Positions 12,143-25,236 of a stretch of 32,342 nt of DNA are shown in pieces (position 1 is the stretch's first letter; each line of letters opens with the position of its first letter). A model generated the notes under the pieces. That model was not told where the DNA came from. It saw nothing but the letters and a program-made list of their open reading frames with translations, and ran no database searches. Position numbers and translations under genes: made by a program. The stretch spans positions 1 through 32,342 of the forward strand of contig JAGWFU010000001.1 of assembly GCA_028867845.1 (NCBI GenBank). The letters are read 5' to 3'. This DNA comes from Candidatus Micrarchaeota archaeon (GTDB lineage Archaea > Micrarchaeota > Micrarchaeia > Micrarchaeales > Micrarchaeaceae).

Positions 12143-14761
12143 TTGGAAGGCAGGGTCAAGGCGCAATCCGCGATGGAGTATCTCTCCACCTACGGCTGGG
12201 CGATACTCGTAATAGTGATTGTCGCAGCGCTTCTGTACCTGTACTCCTCGACGCCATCAACCGTCGTACCCACCTCCTGCAAATTCATAAGCGGGGTGTA
12301 CTGCAACGACATAGTGCTGGGCACCAACGCGATGACCAAGGCCACTACGGTCGGGCTGTTCCTAACTAACTCCCAACCCTACCCTATGGCCAAGCCCTAC
12401 TTCTTCGCGAAGGTCGCGGGCGCGAACACCACAGGCACATCATGCTCGCCCAACTACGTCCTCGCCGGAGGCTCAATGGTCTGCGTGCTCAACCTGCCAG
12501 TATCAACCACGATGGGCCAGTTCCTTGCAGGCAACCTTTACCTGAATGCGACTTACTGCGGGCTGCAGCCCAACTACTCGCAGGCGAACCTGTGCAACAC
12601 AGCGCCAAGGCAGACCTACATAGGGATCTTCAATTCGCACGCAGAGCCGCTCATAAGCACTAACACTATAATAACTCTGGCAGCCGCCAACGCCACGCAG
12701 TCGGCCAACGGCGCGCTTGACCCGCTGATAGCTACTGTCACGCTTCTCGGATACCCGCTCTCAGGGGCGTCTGTGAACTTCACGGCGAACGTCCCCGGCT
12801 ATCCACTGTCGCCCAACTTCACGACTACGAACACCACAGGGAAGGCACTCAGCCACATATCAGGCACCAGGACAGGCAACGTGCTCGTGACCGCAGCGTA
12901 CGCAGGTGAGGACGCCAACGCTGTGGTGCAGTTCGTGCCTGCGACAAACGTAAAGTTCGCTGTCACGGGATTCCCCTACTGCTCTACAGCAGGCCAGATA
13001 ATAACTATCGACGGGACTGGTTACACCTGCGGCCAACTCACATCGACGACCTTTTCGTGGGGCGCTGGAAGCGTCCACTCCTGCGTAGTCAACGCGATAG
13101 TGCCTGACACCTCAACCATAAGGGGGGCGTGCAAGACCACTGGAGTCTACTGCTCGGCGAACTCCAACGCCGTCATAACGATCAACTGCACGCCCCAGTA
13201 CTACCTCACCGAGTCCGCAAGCCCGCCCGCCGGCGGGTCTATATCCCCCGGCAGCAACTGGTACAACAACACCACTCCTGTAAGCATAAGCACGGCCAAC
13301 AGCGTGGGATACACCTTCCAGGGATGGGCAGGCTCAGGCACCGTGTCCTACACCGGCTCCTCCAACCCCGCCACAGTGACGATGGACTCGCCGGTTGCCG
13401 AGCAGGCCACATACTCGCTGCAGGCGACGTTCTTCGAGAGCGGCCTCGCCGGCGGCACATCGTGGGCAGTGACGCTCAACGGCAACACCCTCTCCACTAC
13501 GGGCACGTCCATAACCTTCACCGGCCTGCCGTCTGGCTCGTTCCCGTGGAGCACCAACGCCGTGGTATCCTGCGGCACTGGGTGCCAGTACCTGGCGTCG
13601 CCCACATCGGGCATGGTATCGACTACGGGCGGTTCCGCGTCCCAGACGGTAACATACACGCCCCAGTACTACCTCACGATGGCAGCTGGGGCAAACGGGG
13701 CTGTCTCGCCATCGAGCGAGTGGCAGAACTCTGGCAACGTGGTGACCATAACAGCCACGCCCAACGCCAATTTTGCGTTTAGCGGCTGGACAGGCACTGG
13801 TTCGGGTTCCTACTCCGGGACAGCGAACCCCTCTACAGTGACAATGAACGGGGCGGTATCGGAGACCGCAGCATTCGCATTCCAGACTACTTACAATCCC
13901 GCGAGCGGCAACTACGCCGGCGATGTGATATTCAGCTCGTCCACAACACTTACCGGCGCCGTCATCGCCTCTAACATGGTGCTGGTGCAGAGCGGCGTTA
14001 CCGTTAATGAGAATGGTCAGTATCTGGAGGGCAACATACTGGTGCAGAATGTGGGCACTATCAATGATGGCTATGACGGCGGCGCCGGAGGTGCTGGGGG
14101 CACTGCTGGTGGCACAGGCGGCAACGGCGGGGCAGGTGGCGCACTAAAAAGCATGACAAGTGCATATTTCAGCCAAATGCTTACAGGTGGACATGGTGGC
14201 AATGGCGGCGGGGGCGGGGGCGGGGACTGCAGCTATTGCGGCAGCGCCTATGGCGGTATTGGTGGTGCTGGCGGAGCGGGAGGAGGCATAGTTCAAATTT
14301 ATTCAGGAAATGTGATTAACCAAGGAATAGTCACTGTTAGCGGCGGCAATGGGCTGCCTGGTGGCTCGGTGAGCGGGGCAGGTGGCGGGGGCGGCGGGGC
14401 AGGTGGCGGGGGCGGCACAATCTTGATAGGGTACGGTGGTAGCTTTACCGCAGGCACGCTATACTATGGCAAGGGTACCGACGCCATTGGTGGAACAGGA
14501 ACCGGCGGTTCAATTACAGAAGGTTCTGGCGGTTCTACTGGTGGAGGCGGAGGAGGCCAAGGCACGACCATCCCATCAGGCAGCCCCTGCAACGAATATA
14601 TAGGAGGAAGTGGCGGCAACGGCGGTGGCGGCGCTGCAGGCGGTGCTGGCGGGGTAGGAAACAACTGCGGCCCATCTAGCCCTGCCGGCGGCAACGGGGC
14701 CTCTGGGACCAATACAAATTCTGCTGGGCAACTGATTACAAAATCGGGATGGACGCCTTAA
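12143..14761 (+). CDS. Giant type IV pilin-like (class III signal peptide) surface protein/adhesin. Modules: pilin-like N-domain, Ig-like (Big_1-like) domain, InlB-B-repeat-like modules and a glycine-rich C-terminal region.
   Basis: The N-terminus (M)EGRVKA|QSAMEYLSTYGWAILVIVIVAALLYLY is a short basic leader, then Q-x-S-x-E-Y/L and a hydrophobic helix, as in archaeal prepilins (E at +5). The start must be non-ATG (TTG 12143 or in-frame GTG 12134, just after a TAA at 12128), because ATG 12173 would delete the leader. Big_1-like segment: LIATVTLLGYPLSGASVNFTAN...TTNTTGKALSHISGTRTGNVLVTAAYAG. Two InlB-B-repeat-like units: TPQYYLT....GYTFQGWAGSG...SNPATVTMDSPV...ATY and FAFSGWTGTGSGSYSGTANPSTVTMNGAVSETAAF. 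The C-terminal ~250 aa are (GGx)n-rich with interspersed beta-strand-like IVQIYSGNVINQGIVTVSGGNG and TILIGYGG. Confidence 0.8.
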   Translation: MEGRVKAQSAMEYLSTYGWAILVIVIVAALLYLYSSTPSTVVPTSCKFISGVYCNDIVLGTNAMTKATTVGLFLTNSQPYPMAKPYFFAKVAGANTTGTSCSPNYVLAGGSMVCVLNLPVSTTMGQFLAGNLYLNATYCGLQPNYSQANLCNTAPRQTYIGIFNSHAEPLISTNTIITLAAANATQSANGALDPLIATVTLLGYPLSGASVNFTANVPGYPLSPNFTTTNTTGKALSHISGTRTGNVLVTAAYAGEDANAVVQFVPATNVKFAVTGFPYCSTAGQIITIDGTGYTCGQLTSTTFSWGAGSVHSCVVNAIVPDTSTIRGACKTTGVYCSANSNAVITINCTPQYYLTESASPPAGGSISPGSNWYNNTTPVSISTANSVGYTFQGWAGSGTVSYTGSSNPATVTMDSPVAEQATYSLQATFFESGLAGGTSWAVTLNGNTLSTTGTSITFTGLPSGSFPWSTNAVVSCGTGCQYLASPTSGMVSTTGGSASQTVTYTPQYYLTMAAGANGAVSPSSEWQNSGNVVTITATPNANFAFSGWTGTGSGSYSGTANPSTVTMNGAVSETAAFAFQTTYNPASGNYAGDVIFSSSTTLTGAVIASNMVLVQSGVTVNENGQYLEGNILVQNVGTINDGYDGGAGGAGGTAGGTGGNGGAGGALKSMTSAYFSQMLTGGHGGNGGGGGGGDCSYCGSAYGGIGGAGGAGGGIVQIYSGNVINQGIVTVSGGNGLPGGSVSGAGGGGGGAGGGGGTILIGYGGSFTAGTLYYGKGTDAIGGTGTGGSITEGSGGSTGGGGGGQGTTIPSGSPCNEYIGGSGGNGGGGAAGGAGGVGNNCGPSSPAGGNGASGTNTNSAGQLITKSGWTP
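14373..14414 (+). repeat. Perfect 2 x 21-nt tandem duplication inside the glycine-rich coding region
   Basis: GCGGGGCAGGTGGCGGGGGCG at 14373-14393 is repeated exactly at 14394-14414. It encodes GAGGGGG twice. Confidence 0.9.
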
Positions 14762-17210: not shown

Positions 17211-17852
17211 TCAGCTCTTCTGCTTCGCCTCCTCAGGCCTCACGTACTCTTCGTCGATGTCCACCTTGCCCACGTTCTTGAAGTAGGTGAAGATGCCAGC
17301 GACAAGGTTGGCCTTGCCCATGAAATAATCAGCGTTCTTCTTTACCGAGTTGTCGAAGCTCAGCCTGACATCCTTGTCCTTCACATCGATCTTTGTTACA
17401 TCAAGGCCGGTCATCTTGCCGAGTGCAGATATCTTCTCCTTGTCGTCGGTGAGGTTCTTCACTACCTTGACCTCGTATGTTATCTCCCTGCCCGCGAGCG
17501 GGTGGTTTGCGTCCACTACCACTCTTCCGGAGTTGACGCTCTTCACTATCGCGGTCATGTTGTCCAGGTTCACCTGAAGACCCGGATACGGATCTATATC
17601 GTGCTTCCTGAACTCCGCAATCGGCATTATCCTGACGAGGTCCTCCATGCGCTCGCCGAACGCCTCATCGGGCTTAAATGTGGCCTTCTTGCTCTCGTTG
17701 ATGCCCATAGAGTGCAGCTCCCTGTCGAGCCCCTTTATCACTCCCTTGCTGCCCAGAACCACGAGCACCGGCCCGTAGCTGTTCTCCTTCTCGTGGGGCG
17801 CAGGCAGCGTGCACTCCTGCGTCGTCAACGCGATAGTGCTGGACACCTCCAC
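17211..17852 (-). CDS. Long-type archaeal FKBP (SlyD-like peptidyl-prolyl isomerase with IF/flap and C-terminal domains). The N-terminal strands are replaced, so it may be a pseudogene or a chimera.
   Basis: YGPVLVVLGSKGVIKGLDRELHSMGINESKKATFKPDEAFGE...IMPIAEF...GLQVNLDNMTAIVKSVNSGRVVVDANHPLAGREITYEVKVVKNL aligns by eye with archaeal FKBPs from about residue 45 onward. The ~30-40 N-terminal residues (..GD.V...Y.G....G.VFDTS..) are absent. The first ~23 codons of the ORF are the antisense of the adhesin-gene remnant at 17784-18026. Confidence 0.65.
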   Translation of the reverse strand: MEVSSTIALTTQECTLPAPHEKENSYGPVLVVLGSKGVIKGLDRELHSMGINESKKATFKPDEAFGERMEDLVRIMPIAEFRKHDIDPYPGLQVNLDNMTAIVKSVNSGRVVVDANHPLAGREITYEVKVVKNLTDDKEKISALGKMTGLDVTKIDVKDKDVRLSFDNSVKKNADYFMGKANLVAGIFTYFKNVGKVDIDEEYVRPEEAKQKS

Positions 17853-18026
17853 GATAAGAGGGGGGCCTGCAAGACAAACAACGTCTACTGCAGCGCGAGC
17901 CAGAACTCCACAATAACAATCAACTGCACGCCCCAGTACTACCTCACCGAGTCCGCAAGTCCGTCCGCCGGCGGCTCTGGCATTGTGGTAATAGCGTACA
18001 ACTCCCTAGGCAACGGGAATCCATAG
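17784..18026 (+). pseudogene. Chimeric, frameshifted remnant of a pilin-like adhesin paralogue: an A-type internal segment fused to a B-type C-terminus
   Basis: 17784-17975 is about 80-85% identical by eye to 13051-13242 of the 12143-14761 gene (SFSWGAGSVHSCVVNAIVLDTSTIR / GACKTNNVYCSASQNSTITINCTPQYYLTESASPSAGGS versus TFSWGAGSVHSCVVNAIVPDTSTIRGACKTTGVYCSANSNAVITINCTPQYYLTESASPPAGGS). A 2-nt insertion sits at the AAGAGGGGGG run (about 17858-17866). From about 17976 it continues as GIVVIAYNSLGNGNP*, matching the last residues of the 18279-19934 gene (GIVIIAYNALGNGTP*), also at the nucleotide level. Confidence 0.8.
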
Positions 18027-18241
18027 ACGTCCCCCCTCTCTGTCGTATCCCGCTAATATCTCCCCTCTTTAAGTCTTTACCCACAAGAAGAATGCCCAAC
18101 CGCTTGTGGCGTGGTTAAGGAACGAAGCTAGAGTACTTCGTGCCTGCCGCTATCCGATGCCCCGCCCCTTGGGATGGGGTTATCCACTTCTGTCGGGAAG
18201 AAATTCTGGCGGGACAACACACAAAGCCAGTATCGCCGTAA

Positions 18242-18252
18242 GATTATTAAAC
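18242..18252 (+). promoter_or_regulatory. Putative TATA box for the second pilin-like gene
   Basis: GATTATTAAAC is centred about 30 nt upstream of ATG 18279. This favours ATG 18279 over the in-frame ATG 18174. Confidence 0.35.
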
Positions 18253-18278
18253 TGTTACAGATAAGGCATATAGATTTG

Positions 18279-19934
18279 ATGGGGGGGGGAAAGGGCAAAC
18301 GGCTGAAACAGCAGTCGGCGCTGGAGCTGCTCACAACCTACTCGTGGGCCCTCCTGATAATCGCCATATTCGTGGCGGCAGTCGCAGTGATAAACAGCGC
18401 AAGGCCTGCGACCAACTATCTCGCATCCTCATGTTCAATAGAGCCACTTCTCCTGTGCACCCAGACCCTTCTCAACTACAACGCGATAAGCCCGATAAAA
18501 TTCACAATCCTCTTCCAGAATAACTTAGGGCAGACGATGTACTTCCCACTCAACTCGATCAACATAACTGTGACGAACATAGGCAACAAGGGAGTGACAT
18601 ACTCGAAGGGCAACTGCACCCCCTCCCTTGCACTGCAGGGCACGCCGATACTTTGCAGCGCCTACATACCCGGTACGTTCAAGCCCGCGATAGGAACGCA
18701 GGAGACCATACTGTTCTCGCTGAACTACCAATTGTGCAGGACCAACGCGCCCTCCTCCTGCGCCTCGACGCAGTACAGGACGGCCGGCCAGTCGTCGCAG
18801 ACCATGGCGCCCTCGGCAACCGTGTTCCACACGCTGAAGATAACTGCGAGTCCAACCTCGGGGTTCGTGAACCTCAACGGGGTGACATATCTCAACAACG
18901 CCAACGTCCTGCTTCTCACCAACAACTACAACGTGTACGCGATACCACCATCGGGGTACAAGTTCTCCTCTTGGGGAATCAGTGTGGGGGCAGGAGGCGG
19001 GACCTCAAGCGTCGTATCCAGCTCCACGCAGAACACGATACTCAATCTGGGGTCCAACGCGACCCTGACCGCCAACTTCGGCACCTTGCCGACTACGAGC
19101 ACGGTGACCCTGACTTCTACGTCAACGGCCTCAACCTCATCAACAACTACGTCATCGACTACAACAACCACCATATTCGCTGCTACCTGCGGAGGGAGCG
19201 CCAGCTCTTCATCCGGCAACACGATCTGCACATTTACCTCGAGCGGAACGTTCACACCTAACGGCGCAGGAAATGTTGCGGTTCTTGTAGTTGCGGGCGG
19301 AGGCGGCGGCGGAAAGTCTGGATTCGGAGGTGGAGGTGGGGGAGGCGTAGTCTATGCTTCATCGTATGCTGTAAGTAGTGTTGCTTACAGTGTTACAGTG
19401 GGCGGCGGCGGAAGTGGCGCGTACGATAATAACGGAATCAGCTCTGTATTCAGTACCATAACGGCAATTGGGGGTGGAGGAGCTTCAGGCCAAAACGGCG
19501 GTTCTGGGGGCGGATGTATGGGATGTAGTGCAGGAGGAACATCAATACAAGGAAACAGCGGCGGCGGAACCGGATATGGAAATAACGGTGCTGGAGTCTT
19601 AGATGAGTCCCATAGTGGCGGTGGTGGCGGTGCTGGGAGCCCGGGTAGTGCTGGATCTCCAGGAGCAGGCGGTGCAGGCGGATCCGGTATGGCATTTAGC
19701 ATTTCAGGTTCCGTGGTGTATTATGCCGGTGGAGGAGGGGGAATTTATGGTGGTGCTGGAGGTTCTGGGGGCGGAGGGAATGGCGTAGCCACCAATGGCA
19801 ACAATGGCTTTCCAGGAACTGCAAATACAGGCGGAGGCGGGGGCGCCGGAGGAGCAAGCGGAGATAATGGAGGAGATGGGGGATCTGGCATAGTCATAAT
19901 AGCGTACAACGCCCTTGGCAACGGCACTCCCTAA
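18279..19934 (+). CDS. Type IV pilin-like (class III signal peptide) surface protein with one InlB-B-repeat-like module, a Ser/Thr linker and a C-terminal polyglycine-rich domain (Gly_rich / ALK-LTK GRD-like)
   Basis: The N-terminus is MGGGKGKRLKQ|QSALELLTTYSWALLIIAIFVAAVAVI (Q-x-S-x-E motif plus hydrophobic helix). The pilin-like head has paired Cys. The B-repeat-like unit is GYKFSSWGISVGAGGGTSSVVSSSTQNTILNLGSNATLTANF. The linker is TSTVTLTSTSTASTSSTTTSSTTTTT. Then comes CTFTSSGTFTPNGAGNVAVLVVAGGGGGG....GGGGGGVVYAS...Y.VTVGGGG......GGGG...GGSGGG...YAGGGGG...NTGGGGGAGG...GGDGGSGIVIIAYN. This is the strand/poly-Gly alternation I recall for the 'glycine rich protein' family that includes the ALK/LTK glycine-rich domain. 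The track ORF starts at the in-frame ATG 18174. Confidence 0.8.
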   Translation: MGGGKGKRLKQQSALELLTTYSWALLIIAIFVAAVAVINSARPATNYLASSCSIEPLLLCTQTLLNYNAISPIKFTILFQNNLGQTMYFPLNSINITVTNIGNKGVTYSKGNCTPSLALQGTPILCSAYIPGTFKPAIGTQETILFSLNYQLCRTNAPSSCASTQYRTAGQSSQTMAPSATVFHTLKITASPTSGFVNLNGVTYLNNANVLLLTNNYNVYAIPPSGYKFSSWGISVGAGGGTSSVVSSSTQNTILNLGSNATLTANFGTLPTTSTVTLTSTSTASTSSTTTSSTTTTTIFAATCGGSASSSSGNTICTFTSSGTFTPNGAGNVAVLVVAGGGGGGKSGFGGGGGGGVVYASSYAVSSVAYSVTVGGGGSGAYDNNGISSVFSTITAIGGGGASGQNGGSGGGCMGCSAGGTSIQGNSGGGTGYGNNGAGVLDESHSGGGGGAGSPGSAGSPGAGGAGGSGMAFSISGSVVYYAGGGGGIYGGAGGSGGGGNGVATNGNNGFPGTANTGGGGGAGGASGDNGGDGGSGIVIIAYNALGNGTP

Positions 19935-23077: not shown

Positions 23078-23539
23078 ATGGAGATAAACGAGGCCAACCT
23101 GATAGAGCAGGAGCTGACATTGAGGAACCTCAGGGTGACCAAGGAGGTGGTCGAGACCAGGAGGTCGATAGTCAGGTGGCTGGCCCTCACCTTGGGAGTC
23201 ATCAGCCCCGGGGAGTCGAGGCTCACCGCCATATCCGTGCTGGACTCGGTGTTCTACTTCCAGTTCGGGCAGAGGAAGGACCCCACGGTGGAGGAGATGT
23301 CGGGATACATAAACCAGTCCTGGGGCGGGGAGATAAACGAGAAGACGCTCAGGTATCATCTGCTCCAGCTGAAGAAGGCCAACATAGTGGACAACGCAAA
23401 GGGGAAGTACTTCCTCACCTCGCCGCAGATGGGAGACAGGTATGACGCAGATGCATGGATAACCAATTACATAGATTCGCTTACAAGCCCGATAAAGGAG
23501 AAGACCAGGGCTGTGATAAAGGAGCTGAAGGGAAGATGA
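23078..23539 (+). CDS. Winged-helix DNA-binding protein (ArsR/MarR-like wHTH)
   Basis: ...TVEEMSGYINQSWGGEINEKTLRYHLLQLKKANIVDNAKGKYFLT is a recognition helix plus wing. The start is ATG 23078 (GTG 23069 is an alternative). Its TGA stop overlaps the ATG of the next gene (ATGA at 23536-23539). Confidence 0.6.
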   Translation: MEINEANLIEQELTLRNLRVTKEVVETRRSIVRWLALTLGVISPGESRLTAISVLDSVFYFQFGQRKDPTVEEMSGYINQSWGGEINEKTLRYHLLQLKKANIVDNAKGKYFLTSPQMGDRYDADAWITNYIDSLTSPIKEKTRAVIKELKGR

Positions 23540-25236
23540 TCGTGGAGAAGAACATAACAGTGTACGCAGGGGCGGCCATAGTCGTGGCCGTGATAGTCGT
23601 TGCAGCAGCGCTTCTGCTTTCAACGCCGAACTACAGCATAAGCGTGAAGCTGCTGACGAACAGCACCCCGCCGATCTACCCGTACCAGACCTCCAACTTC
23701 GCCATACTCGTTGCAAACAAGGGATCAGCAGTCAGCAACCTTGTGATAGGCTTCTACCTCAACGCCAGCGAGCTCAACTACTACAAGATATCCATACCCG
23801 CGGACAAGACCGTGCTGATACCCGCTAACTACACATACACGACGAATGGAACATACAGGTTCTCGGCAGTCGCAGACCCCGCCCACGTGCTCTCGATAAA
23901 GGACAGAAACGGGACCACATCCACCAACACGCTCATCGTGACGCAGGCACAGGGTGCCAACATATTCACCTCAATTCCGAACAACAACATAAATTACACC
24001 CAGAGCTTCTCGTTCACGACCATAGGTCTTGAGTCATCGTCAGCGGCAGCCGACAGGTTCAACATATCAGTATTCAACGACCTCTTCGCGATACCGCAGG
24101 CTATAACAGCCAAGATAGGCGAGAACGTATTCCAGGGGACAGCCTACGCCAACGGCGCCTACGCCAGGTACCTGAACGGCAGCGCGGCATACACGCTCTG
24201 GCTGCAGGGAGAGGCAACCCCGCAGCAGGTGCAGTACATAGCATCGACATTCCAGATCCCCTCCGCTCAGGTGGAGCTCCAGAACGCCACTGCTGAGTTC
24301 ATGAAGGTAAGCAACACGACGAGCATGTGCGCCTTCTACAGCAACGGATGGACCAAGATAATATCGTACTACAACAACAGCATGGGATCGTCGTGCAGGG
24401 CAGTGGCAGCCTCGACGTACCAGCCGACTGAGAGCAACACGCTAGTGTCCGCGCTTAAGGCCAACCCAAAGGTCCCTGTATACAGGTCGCAGTTCACCTA
24501 CACCAACTCCACCCTCGTCGGATCAGCGATAATCTATTCCAACAGGACGCTGGGAGTGGCCAACATGTTCTACAACAACTTCGGCTTCTTCACTAGCGTG
24601 ATACAGTCCAACGCAAAGGCCAACTGGTCTGCAAACCAGACGGGCGTCTGCAGGGGACTCTCGTACGACAACGGCACCACTAACGTCTGCTCGGTCTACG
24701 TGGCGCCAAAGGCCGCGGTGAAGGCAAACGGCTACGCCATGGTCAACTCGACGCAGATAGGCGCAAGCTACATACTCCAGCTCTTCTCGCTGGTCAACCA
24801 GACCAACCTGGTCAGCGCGCACGTCAACGCAGTCTCGCTCATAAGGGCGCTCAACATATCGCAGAACACCACAAAGTGGGTCTCCGCGTTCAACAACGCC
24901 TGCAATGTGAACAACTCATCGATACCGTGCAGGGTGACCTCCTTCGACTACGTGAACAACACCGCATACCTGAACTTCACCAACATGCTGGGAGCACCAC
25001 TACATGTGAACCACGCCGCATGCTACGTGCCAGGCGAGCGCCTGAACTTCACGGTCAACGACACGCTGCGCACAGGGCAGTCGCTCAACCTCAGGCTGCC
25101 GTGCACTACGCTGCCGATACCCATAGTCAGCCCGGCCACCAGCTACCTGCTGCAGCTGAACTACACATACAACGGCACTACAAGGAGCGCCAACGGGTTC
25201 CTCAACGTCACTAACCCTGGACTGGGAGGCGGCTGA
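23536..25236 (+). CDS. Large membrane-anchored extracellular protein, extremely rich in N-glycosylation sequons (surface glycoprotein candidate)
   Basis: The start MIVEKNITVYAGAAIVVAVIVVAAALLL gives an N-terminal TM anchor. The 566-aa Asn/Ser/Thr/Tyr-rich ectodomain has about 30 N-x-S/T sequons by my count. No recognisable enzymatic motifs. Confidence 0.7.
   Translation: MIVEKNITVYAGAAIVVAVIVVAAALLLSTPNYSISVKLLTNSTPPIYPYQTSNFAILVANKGSAVSNLVIGFYLNASELNYYKISIPADKTVLIPANYTYTTNGTYRFSAVADPAHVLSIKDRNGTTSTNTLIVTQAQGANIFTSIPNNNINYTQSFSFTTIGLESSSAAADRFNISVFNDLFAIPQAITAKIGENVFQGTAYANGAYARYLNGSAAYTLWLQGEATPQQVQYIASTFQIPSAQVELQNATAEFMKVSNTTSMCAFYSNGWTKIISYYNNSMGSSCRAVAASTYQPTESNTLVSALKANPKVPVYRSQFTYTNSTLVGSAIIYSNRTLGVANMFYNNFGFFTSVIQSNAKANWSANQTGVCRGLSYDNGTTNVCSVYVAPKAAVKANGYAMVNSTQIGASYILQLFSLVNQTNLVSAHVNAVSLIRALNISQNTTKWVSAFNNACNVNNSSIPCRVTSFDYVNNTAYLNFTNMLGAPLHVNHAACYVPGERLNFTVNDTLRTGQSLNLRLPCTTLPIPIVSPATSYLLQLNYTYNGTTRSANGFLNVTNPGLGGG

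Follow-up and report, generated by a model that had tools for sequence, protein, structure and literature searches.

A modular type IV pilin-like protein with a C-terminal Gly_rich_2 domain predicted in a Micrarchaeota genome

Introduction

What kind of protein joins a pilin-type N-terminus to a glycine-rich C-terminal domain, and what might such a protein do on the surface of an archaeal cell? The question is raised by a gene of a Candidatus Micrarchaeota archaeon (GenBank assembly GCA_028867845.1, contig JAGWFU010000001.1), of which a stretch of 32,342 nucleotides, hereafter the 32-kb window, was analyzed. Host recognition and attachment are little understood in DPANN archaea, and pilin-anchored proteins with a PF21722 domain are concrete candidates for these functions, testable in existing Micrarchaeota co-cultures; variable loops and the swapping of cargo among orthologues make them more interesting still. 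On balance, we favor the reading that the gene product is a modular type-IV-pilin-like surface protein of Micrarchaeota (DPANN) that presents a binding module of phage type, with attachment as its probable function.

Gene and Domain Organization

The source open reading frame occupies positions 18174..19934 of the forward strand, and the complete coding sequence was placed at 18279..19934 (+; 551 aa plus stop). The ATG at 18279 was taken as the start because the N-termini of the orthologues P0002, P0003, and P0121 begin 8–11 residues ahead of the conserved QQSALELL. An identical protein (P0001) has this contig as its sole recorded source. The protein has five parts: a pilin-type N-terminus, a six-Cys head, an InlB-B-repeat unit, a Ser/Thr linker, and a Gly-rich C-terminal domain. 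Its conserved core of ~260 aa (leader, QSALE, hydrophobic helix, Cys-paired head, and InlB-B-like domain) is followed by the linker and a domain of the PF21722 family. The reading frame, the start, and the features that an earlier note had listed for this gene are all present in the sequence.

The Pilin-Like Core

The first 11 residues (MGGGKGKRLKQ; 18279..18311, +) form a basic leader, which a prepilin peptidase would cleave before Q12. The mature N-terminus would thus begin with QSALE, with glutamate at position +5, and run into a hydrophobic alpha-1 helix (aa 12–39; 18312..18395, +), modeled by AF2 over aa 14–39 and with a Kyte-Doolittle peak of 2.4 at aa 20–38. With an arrow for the putative cleavage site, the whole N-terminus reads MGGGKGKRLKQ↓QSALELLTTYSWALLIIAIFVAAVAVI. 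It combines the short charged leader, the cleavage motif, the glutamate at +5, and the helix of ~20 residues by which class III (prepilin) signals are recognized. Residues Q12, S13, A14, L15, and E16 are invariant in all aligned relatives, and the invariant block opens at Q12. The residue at −1 is Q in the 551-aa protein and A, L, S, or Q in its relatives, where G or A is usual. The corresponding region of a neighboring 872-aa pilin-like paralogue (12143..14761, +) is KA↓QSAMEYL, and the pattern QSA[ML]E[YLF]LxTY heads at least 61 open reading frames of 138–834 aa in the fetched loci, many of them of typical pilin size (150–190 aa); among the matches listed, nearly all carriers come from genomes labeled as Micrarchaeota.

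The archaeal pilin models of Pfam and NCBIfam (PF04021 Class_IIIsignal and TIGR02537-type models) gave no match, also when 60-aa N-terminal pieces were scanned at E ≤ 10, a null result that is weak because the models are short. The bacterial N-methylation motif (PF07963/IPR012902) was likewise not matched in a full-length scan of the protein. Judged by its residues, the signal resembles those of archaeal class III (prepilin) proteins, in agreement with the prepilin-type N-terminus proposed in the earlier note. With an N-terminus of archaeal type, the protein is an archaeal analogue that lies outside the catalogued set of modular pilins (PMC8179133).

The head (aa 50–177; 18426..18809, +) was delimited by the AF2 model and the alignment as a beta-sandwich with six cysteines (52/60, 113/126, and 153/161). 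The model is all-beta over aa 51–177, with pLDDT of ~66–87 per 10-residue block; in the alignment, C52, C60, and C113 are invariant, and C126 and C153 are conserved at ≥90%. In an alignment of 129 aa, the head and that of the 872-aa protein are 29% identical (E 9e-11) and their cysteines line up, which bears out the earlier suggestion of paralogous Cys-paired heads. The two proteins part ways at the C-terminus, as that of the 872-aa paralogue is a different Gly-rich sequence, unrelated to Gly_rich_2.

A single InlB-B-like unit had also been suggested, and it was recovered as a beta domain (aa 183–267; 18825..19079, +; AF2 beta domain 183–269) of the divergent InlB B-repeat type (PF18998, Flg_new_2). 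The profile, whose cut-off is 23.6 bits, matched the piece aa 178–274 with 30.5 bits (E 3.5e-7) and the piece aa 1–274 with 24.3 bits; it was absent from the full-length Pfam scan of the 551-aa protein. Taken together, the N-terminal model consists of the helix at 14–39 and two beta-sandwiches, and its confidence is moderate (pLDDT 76.7). A Foldseek search with this model of pLDDT 76.7 returned no type IV pilin; its matches were generic Ig-like tandems (UafA, sortase pilins, chaperones, and Kir channels), which at TM ≤ 0.25 are uninformative on pilin identity. The sole matches of the N-terminal-alignment profile in the PDB, to titin fn3, are an artefact, since the cargo columns of P0003 were contained in that profile.

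The core is followed by a linker of 31 aa (aa 268–298; 19080..19172, +), a putative target of O-glycosylation, as the earlier note had suggested. The Ser/Thr linker of the earlier note is real: its composition is 81% Ser/Thr, and in orthologues it is the junction at which the cargo switches.

Modularity of the Core and Distribution of the Fusion

The core also occurs alone, in the proteins P0123–P0128 of ~260 aa. In other orthologues of the core, the same linker leads into other cargo, namely Ig-like domains, fn3 with DUF2341, or InlB-B with an F5/8-like domain. The proteins P0001, P0002, P0003, and P0004 have the sequence ...STVTLTSTST... in common and diverge completely right after it. A core that stands alone and carries four types of cargo behind the same linker is modular in the sense used for bacterial modular pilins (PMC8179133).

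Fusions of a pilin-like N-terminus with PF21722 were retrieved in 22 other Micrarchaeota clusters and, on bacterial type IV pilins, in 14 clusters, at least two of which are from CPR bacteria. Those retrieved with a source name bear generic names or are unnamed, and no publication was found on a fusion of a pilin with Gly_rich_2. The combination is already present in public databases, unremarked, and recurs in Micrarchaeota; to call it a new context for the glycine-rich fold, as was first done, was overstated.

Among the nearest known systems are Micrarchaeota paralogues of ~420–440 aa (P0007, P0008, P0021, P0033, P0034, and P0129–P0134, among others), which have the same type of signal, the PF21722 cargo, and the same tail. 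However, their head is shorter (~130 aa) and different, and they are devoid of the InlB-B unit and the long Ser/Thr linker, whereas the 551-aa protein uses the 260-aa QQSALELL core. The bacterial fusions of ~390–520 aa (for example, P0063, P0093, P0118 from Falkowbacteria, P0173, and P0189) carry the same cargo on a pilin-type N-terminus, but this N-terminus is G↓FT(L/I)IE, the pilin head is different, there is no such Ser/Thr linker, and the proteins end in ...GGSGIVI(I/V)RY.

In general layout (a pilin module, a linker, and a bulky functional module), the 551-aa protein resembles the bacterial modular pilins, which act in adhesion and host binding and of which many come from ultrasmall CPR. 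In the latter, the cargo that accompanies IPR012902/PF07963 is of vWA, lectin, jelly-roll, or propeller type, whereas here an archaeal N-terminus is combined with PF21722. Modular pilins of bacteria, of which PilB and PilC of S. sanguinis are examples, serve as tip adhesins, and some of comparable size become part of filaments (PMC8179133); in TM7x, the minor pilins PilX1 and PilX2, with C-terminal accessory domains, are required in host binding (PMC11623550). The 2021 survey of modular pilins covered bacteria only and lists no glycine-rich cargo (PMC8179133), and the survey of archaeal type IV pili contains nothing on DPANN or fused pilins (Makarova et al., 2016). The 551-aa protein carries the idea of the modular pilin over from bacteria to archaea.

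A wider scenario, speculative and in our opinion rather unlikely, is that two lineages of ultrasmall episymbionts, DPANN Micrarchaeota with their archaeal class III signal and CPR/Patescibacteria with their bacterial N-methyl pilin, have independently mounted a phage-type receptor-binding module (PF21722) on type IV pilins, with the cargo swapped at the Ser/Thr linker. If this were true, the module would determine host recognition in episymbiosis, and it would either have been borrowed from viruses, which must recognize the same cell surfaces, or be shared with them. The 551-aa protein itself represents neither a new fold nor a new principle, and PF21722 has thousands of members.

Filament Subunit or Surface Anchor

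With 551 aa, the protein cannot be a major pilin. In the reading favored here, it would be a minor pilin, along the following lines. An A24 prepilin peptidase would remove the leader, and the N-terminal helix would serve first as a membrane anchor and later as the part inserted into a type IV filament, the tip or its vicinity being the most likely place. The Ser/Thr linker would keep the glycine-rich module clear of the filament, and the loops that vary, set between conserved glycine segments, may recognize a ligand carried by a host cell or another surface.

Neither pilus assembly genes nor a prepilin peptidase were detected within the 32-kb window. In a close relative with a 75%-identical core, the orthologous gene pair has a prepilin peptidase gene (PF01478; 27.0 bits, cut-off 26.5) at a distance of 4.3 kb, and for the Micrarchaeota genome Mia14, a single FlaK-like peptidase was reported alongside two systems of type IV pili (PMC5498576).

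A serious, if less probable, alternative is that the class III-type N-terminus serves export and anchoring in the membrane or envelope, and that the protein is a cell-surface adhesin or an envelope component which never polymerizes. The sugar-binding proteins of Sulfolobus are processed by a prepilin peptidase, and there the signal has such a role in export and anchoring. The large size of the protein, the missing pilus genes nearby, and the lack of matches to pilin profiles and pilin folds are all in keeping with this explanation; moreover, PF21722 occurs on many non-pilin anchors and also within giant surface proteins that reach 7,335 aa. On the other hand, the same N-terminal motif heads many Micrarchaeota reading frames of pilin size, bacterial relatives carry PF21722 on canonical N-methyl pilin N-termini, and size is no obstacle in bacteria, where modular pilins of about this size enter filaments (PMC8179133).

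Our preference for a modular pilin was formed by counting in its favor the invariant N-terminal block, the modeled helix with beta-sandwiches, the PF01478 gene of the relative, the pili of Mia14, the cargo swapping, and the bacterial precedents. Counted against it were the absence of a pilin match by profile or fold, the Q at −1, the absence of pilus genes from the window, in which the neighbors have housekeeping roles, and the modest TM to the Pam3 tail fiber described below.

Family and Fold of the Glycine-Rich Domain

The C-terminal domain (aa 299–551; 19173..19931, +) opens with CTFTSSGTFTPNGAGNVAVLVVAGGGGGG and finishes with GGDGGSGIVIIAYN. It consists of 253 aa with 37% Gly, and 10 runs of 3–7 Gly and ~12–13 Gly-rich motifs can be distinguished. 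The profile PF21722 (Gly_rich_2; cut-off 24.3 bits) matched the full protein with 69.8 bits (E 4.6e-19; profile positions 1–225 of 226) and the domain alone with 73.5 bits (E 3.4e-20), and the domain matched phrog_2295 at E 5e-39. At E ≤ 1e-3, its relatives amount to 6,966 cluster representatives among 1.84 billion. No paper was found on PF21722 or Gly_rich_2.

The AF2 model of the domain (pLDDT 93.5, pTM 0.91) has a beta-sandwich base and ~12 glycine-rich segments. At a threshold of E ≤ 1e-3, Foldseek matched it to 208 predicted viral glycine-rich models in BFVD, where TM values reached 0.86 and the rmsd 2.2 Å, both sides of the comparison being predictions; cyanophages, the Halorubrum phage HF2, and prasinoviruses are among their sources. 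Scarcely any helix or strand is assigned by DSSP to residues 100–240 of the model, where the 10-residue pLDDT means are mostly ~90–98, falling to 69–75 in residues 131–150; this is indirect evidence for glycine segments that may be packed into a hydrogen-bonded lattice in polyglycine-II/PPII conformation. A comparison of 20 Micrarchaeota copies showed conserved Gly motifs separated by variable loops (aa 379–386, 413–420, 431–446, and 501–513), and the confidence of the model was lowest in the loop that varies most. Motifs other than glycine are conserved as well (CTFTSSGTF, VAVLVVAGGG, SVFSTITA, GQGN, SISGS..YYAGGGG, ANTGGGG, and GGSGIVII), and the domain ends in a lineage-specific tail, YNALGNGTP, which the Micrarchaeota copies carry as YNALGNG[TS]P.

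The Gly-rich region is thus a true folded domain and a member of an already catalogued family. The similarity to glycine-rich proteins on which the earlier note had made its proposal depend was found in profile (PF21722, E 3.4e-20) and in structure (BFVD, TM 0.86), and together with the pLDDT of 93.5 it speaks for a domain rather than generic low complexity. Phage proteins of PF21722 and phrog_2295 agree with it in the full-length profile match, the identical order of motifs, and TM values of up to 0.86. However, most members of PF21722 have phage fiber-like N-termini or Sec-type signals, or are giant multi-domain surface proteins, whereas here the domain follows an archaeal pilin-like core.

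Among solved structures, the domain shows its greatest similarity to the distal, putatively receptor-binding portion of the tail fiber of the cyanophage Pam3. This fiber (7ypx_A) was the top Foldseek match in the PDB (E 2.2e-3, probability 1.00), although the TM of 0.42 is modest; Foldseek may deal poorly with non-regular glycine segments. A 178-aa fragment of the fiber protein gp24 aligned to positions 19–225 of PF21722 at E 2e-4, but its 21.9 bits just missed the cut-off of 24.3, and against the profile built in this analysis it scored ~5 SD above shuffles. In a sequence-based search of the PDB with a profile of 49 homologues, the fiber appeared at E ~1, and phmmer with the 551-aa protein gave no match to PDB sequences. 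According to the published structure, this region of gp24 comprises a TNF-like and a glycine-rich domain, in which 12 glycine-rich motifs form a lattice on the beta-sandwich (TNF-like) base; the stem is conserved, the distal tip is variable, and a role as receptor binder was proposed (PMC9608196). Pam3 gp24 (PDB 7YPX, 7YFW) is the closest solved structure, with borderline membership in PF21722, and it provides this little-studied family with an anchor among solved structures. To its 12 motifs and variable tip correspond the ~12–13 motifs and variable inter-motif loops of the 551-aa protein. Unlike gp24, which is a trimer with an N-terminal helical bundle and the chaperone gp25, the 551-aa protein has no such bundle and no adjoining chaperone gene.

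The earlier note had assigned the domain to the ALK/LTK type. One part of this assignment stood, in that the best neighbors in the PDB belong to the class of TNF-like plus polyglycine folds, a striking ranking with weak scores. The ectodomains of ALK and LTK (PF12810; 7LS0, 7NX1, and 7LIR) share this general architecture and come next in rank, LTK/ALK TG/GRD chains taking places 3–19 of the fold search, and a published superposition of Pam3 gp24 itself on C. elegans ALK gave 2.6 Å over 125 C-alpha atoms (PMC9608196). The other part did not stand: the family is PF21722, and membership of the domain in the ALK/LTK glycine-rich family (PF12810) is very unlikely. PF12810 matched neither the full protein (E ≤ 1) nor the domain alone (E ≤ 10) and was missing from the top 25, by number of matches, of the 42 families listed for the 49 homologues, all of which match PF21722; the fold matches to ALK/LTK (E 0.1–2, TM 0.2–0.27) are not significant, and the PDB profile search with the 49 homologues returned no ALK/LTK chain. 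The two receptors are metazoan kinases that bind cytokines. Since PF12810 is unmatched and these Foldseek scores are not significant, the link to ALK is indirect and runs through Pam3 gp24 (PMC9608196).

A domain so abundant in phage proteins, including one of the archaeal tailed virus HF2, might also indicate that the gene lies in an integrated virus or is a recently acquired tail-fiber gene. We regard such an origin as highly improbable, because the gene is flanked by cellular housekeeping genes (fibrillarin, an FKBP whose gene looks truncated, L7Ae, S28e, and NADH dehydrogenase subunits), the region is uniform in GC content, viral hallmark genes were not encountered, and the first ~270 aa of the protein form a pilin-like core specific to Micrarchaeota.

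That the stretch is generic low complexity with no defined fold, as its 37% Gly, the empty BLAST-type searches under a low-complexity filter, and the mostly poly-Gly artefacts among the PDB profile matches could suggest, is refuted by the collinear full-length Pfam match, the conserved non-Gly motifs, the confident model, and its agreement with independent viral models. The search of 50,697 phage genomes by tblastn with the domain, which gave no match, was probably emptied by that filter. CCDC6 and IC140, matched in the PDB by the profile of 49 homologues, were set aside as poly-Gly artefacts.

A Chimeric Stub Upstream of the Gene

Just upstream and outside of the coding sequence lies a chimeric stub (17786..18025, +) of a third pilin-like/Gly_rich_2 gene, recognized by its identity to the two paralogues. 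As far as the nucleotide identities can tell, this stub is evidence of recombination among paralogues. Such recombination may exchange the cargo at the linker and would thereby equip each genome with several adhesins that share one anchor. In the stub, positions 17786–17978 are 82–87% identical to 13050–13240, within the 872-aa gene, and positions 17970–18025 are 82% identical to 19878–19933, at the end of the gene described here; read in frame, the stub ends in ...CTPQYYLTESASPSAGGSGIVVIAYNSLGNGNP and a stop codon.

Architecture of the 551-aa protein

The window holds an open reading frame at 18174..19934 (+), which yields a 551-aa product from the ATG at 18279; this start is supported by the N-termini of the orthologues, which lie 8–11 residues ahead of the invariant block QQSALELL. 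Direct inspection confirmed all the features that the earlier note had listed for 18279-19934: a leader of basic character (MGGGKGKRLKQ), the QSALELL block with a strongly hydrophobic stretch behind it, six head cysteines (52/60, 113/126 and 153/161), a Ser/Thr linker at residues 268–298 (31 residues, 81% Ser/Thr by composition), and a C-terminal region of 253 residues with 37% Gly, ten runs of 3–7 Gly and about 12–13 glycine-rich motifs. The head, described there as paralogous and Cys-paired, is 29% identical over 129 aa (E 9e-11), with the cysteines aligned, to that of the 872-aa protein encoded at 12143..14761 (+), and the InlB-B-like unit, scanned as a separate piece, matched PF18998 with 30.5 bits, above the Pfam threshold of 23.6.

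The glycine-rich domain

Profile and structure comparisons of the C-terminal region both gave matches. PF21722 (Gly_rich_2) covers the region at profile positions 1-225/226 (E 4.6e-19 with the full-length protein and 3.4e-20 with the domain by itself), and phrog_2295 matched it with E 5e-39. The AlphaFold2 model of the domain, from a 49-sequence alignment, reached pLDDT 93.5 and pTM 0.91, with beta strands at both its start and its end and long stretches lacking regular secondary structure, mostly of very high confidence. Among predicted viral structures it had 208 matches at E ≤ 1e-3 (TM up to 0.86), including “glycine-rich domain-containing proteins” of cyanophage, Halorubrum phage HF2 and prasinovirus. 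The region is a defined domain; the near-full profile match, the pLDDT and the viral TM values make generic low complexity unlikely. Of 1.84 billion cluster representatives, all searched exhaustively, 6,966 are related to the domain with E ≤ 1e-3, and 1,981 of these reach E ≤ 1e-10. In 20 Micrarchaeota copies of the domain, conserved glycine motifs alternate with variable loops.

Many of these relatives are giants, the longest of 7,335 aa, and carry up to 11 domain copies (representatives P0218-P0343); in the fetched loci the domain occurs in proteins of 2,000 aa and more of CPR bacteria (Saccharibacteria, Komeilibacteria, Gottesmanbacteria). Micrarchaeota copies (P0001, P0007, P0008, P0021, P0033, P0034, P0129-P0134 and others) end in an additional, conserved tail, YNALGNG[TS]P, which contains an N-G-T/S sequon; bacterial and phage members lack it and end in ...GGSGIVI(I/V)RY.

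The likeness to the ALK/LTK type, suggested in the earlier note, appears to hold for the structural class but not for the family. PF12810, the ALK/LTK family, gave no match at E ≤ 1 for the full-length protein or E ≤ 10 for the domain alone, and it did not figure among the top 25, by number of matches, of 42 families listed for the 49 homologues, all of which (49/49) matched PF21722. The best solved structure was the tail fibre of cyanophage Pam3 (7ypx_A; E 2.2e-3, probability 1.00, TM 0.42), and the TG/GRD chains of LTK and ALK occupied ranks 3–19 (E 0.1–2, TM 0.2–0.27). With PF12810 unmatched and structural matches of this order, literal membership of the ALK/LTK family is unlikely. A 178-residue fragment of Pam3 gp24, taken from an HMMER alignment, matched PF21722 at positions 19-225 (E 2e-4; 21.9 bits, just under the cut-off of 24.3) and scored about 5 SD above shuffles against a profile built in this analysis. 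This region of gp24 has been described as a TNF-like domain with strands running into 12 glycine-rich motifs in a four-layer lattice; its stem is conserved, its distal tip is variable and has been proposed as the part that binds the host receptor, and it is reported to superpose on C. elegans ALK at 2.6 Å over 125 C-alpha atoms (PMC9608196). The link of our domain to ALK is indirect; its kinship with phage fibre tips we regard as supported.

Exchange of cargo domains

The 260-aa core (signal, head and InlB-B unit) also stands alone as a protein in Micrarchaeia (P0123-P0128). The 551-aa protein has this core in common with its closest relatives, as well as the start of the linker (...STVTLTSTST...), after which they diverge completely: P0002 carries Ig-like repeats, P0003 two fn3 domains and DUF2341, and P0004 three InlB-B repeats with a weak F5/8-type match. 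The genes of P0003 and P0004 form a tandem pair in a related genome (L001 10001-14572, JGI 3300031670 contig Ga0307374_10000001); the products, of 834 and 672 aa, have their first 40 residues identical and share the core with the window's gene. PF21722 is also carried by Micrarchaeota proteins of about 420–440 aa, a family whose head is different and shorter, and by P0014, the orthologue of the window's 872-aa protein.

Immediately upstream of the 551-aa gene, at 17786-18025 (+), a third pilin-like gene is represented by a chimeric stub. Its first part copies 13050-13240, the middle of the 872-aa gene (82–87% identical). The second part copies the final 18 codons of the Gly_rich_2 gene, with 82% identity, and the two are joined in frame at an AGGS microhomology. 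The stub abuts an FKBP26-like gene (17211-17852, −) that may be 5'-truncated, since its match to the FKBP_C profile begins at position 32 and nothing FKBP-like was found upstream. This arrangement is the scar of a rearrangement or else a chimera of the assembly. Taken together, the stand-alone core, the divergent cargo, PF21722 on other heads and the stub point to repeated recombination, by which pilin-like carriers exchange their cargo.

The 872-aa paralogue itself (12143-14761, +) combines the same signal and head with Big_1 and two InlB-B repeats. Its C-terminus (13940-14758) is about 270 aa of different Gly-rich sequence that had no Pfam or PHROG match and no similarity to Gly_rich_2, the domain found in its place in P0014; it may be a second, uncatalogued glycine-rich module.

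The pilin-like anchor and its possible function

The names on the closest proteins and loci place the source organism in the Micrarchaeota (DPANN). The prepilin-type N-terminus recognized in the earlier note is organized like a class III signal, with a charged leader, an E at position +5 and a predicted helix at 14-39. Among the matches listed, nearly all genomes with the motif QSA[ML]E[YLF]LxTY are labelled Micrarchaeota, and a few Marsarchaeota or Iainarchaeum; the motif is present on the complete chromosome of Ca. Micrarchaeum sp. A_DKE; in the fetched loci at least 61 ORFs of 138–834 aa begin with it, many of them of ordinary pilin size (150–190 aa).

We somewhat favour a modular pilin acting as an adhesin. 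After removal of the leader by an A24 peptidase, the N-terminal helix would enter a type IV filament, making the protein a minor subunit or a tip subunit; the linker of Ser/Thr, which may be glycosylated, would serve as a spacer, and the variable loops would bind a ligand. Modular pilins have a precedent in PilB/PilC of S. sanguinis (PMC8179133), and in TM7x host binding depends on minor pilins with accessory C-terminal domains (PMC11623550). The main alternative is a protein that remains on the cell envelope and uses its N-terminus for export and anchoring alone; this we consider possible but rather unlikely. The Q at −1 of the putative cleavage site is a weakness of the pilin-like reading; curated models for archaeal pilin N-termini did not match the protein, the N-terminal model (pLDDT 76.7) found only generic Ig-like tandems, and no pilus genes or prepilin peptidase were found within the window. 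Indirect support for that reading comes from a PF01478 prepilin peptidase 4.3 kb upstream of the tandem genes in L001, where the core is 75% identical, and from the cultured Micrarchaeota Mia14, for which two systems for type IV pili and a single FlaK-like peptidase are reported (PMC5498576). A viral origin of the locus, weighed beside the phage-like matches of the cargo domain, is unlikely. The domain composition of the 551-aa protein and the swapping of its cargo are regarded as established, and the chief interest of the protein lies in its candidacy as a factor by which DPANN archaea attach to their hosts.

Occurrence of the fusion

The display of such a domain on an archaeal pilin anchor had been put forward as a new context. 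It is not unique to the window, since 23 clusters among the 217 retrieved proteins, the window's included, join the archaeal N-terminus to PF21722, and 14 join PF21722 to the bacterial pilin N-terminus G|FT(L/I)IE (one labelled Falkowbacteria); in a further 19 the archaeal N-terminus is followed by different cargo or by none. The fusion does appear undescribed: where the source names these proteins, they are “hypothetical protein” or bear a generic prepilin label, a text search of the literature found no mention of PF21722 or Gly_rich_2, and the main text of a survey of bacterial modular pilins, older than the Pfam family, covers neither archaea nor glycine (PMC8179133). The 551-aa protein joins two known kinds, the PF21722 domain protein and the modular pilin, and its new part is the archaeal anchor.

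Other putative surface proteins were noted. At 23455-25236 (+) the window encodes a 593-aa protein with one membrane helix, at its N-terminus, and a great many N-x-S/T sequons; CARDB matched it weakly (E 0.0014), and it too is probably glycosylated and exposed on the surface. A large Micrarchaeota family of about 285–320 aa (L009, L016, L021, L030, L040-L043, L047, L049, L050, L052, L054, L055, L058 and L059 of the fetched loci) shares this class III-type N-terminus, ends in the conserved sequence ...(S/T)xW(x)SGY(S/T)xP, and is often encoded in tandem pairs.
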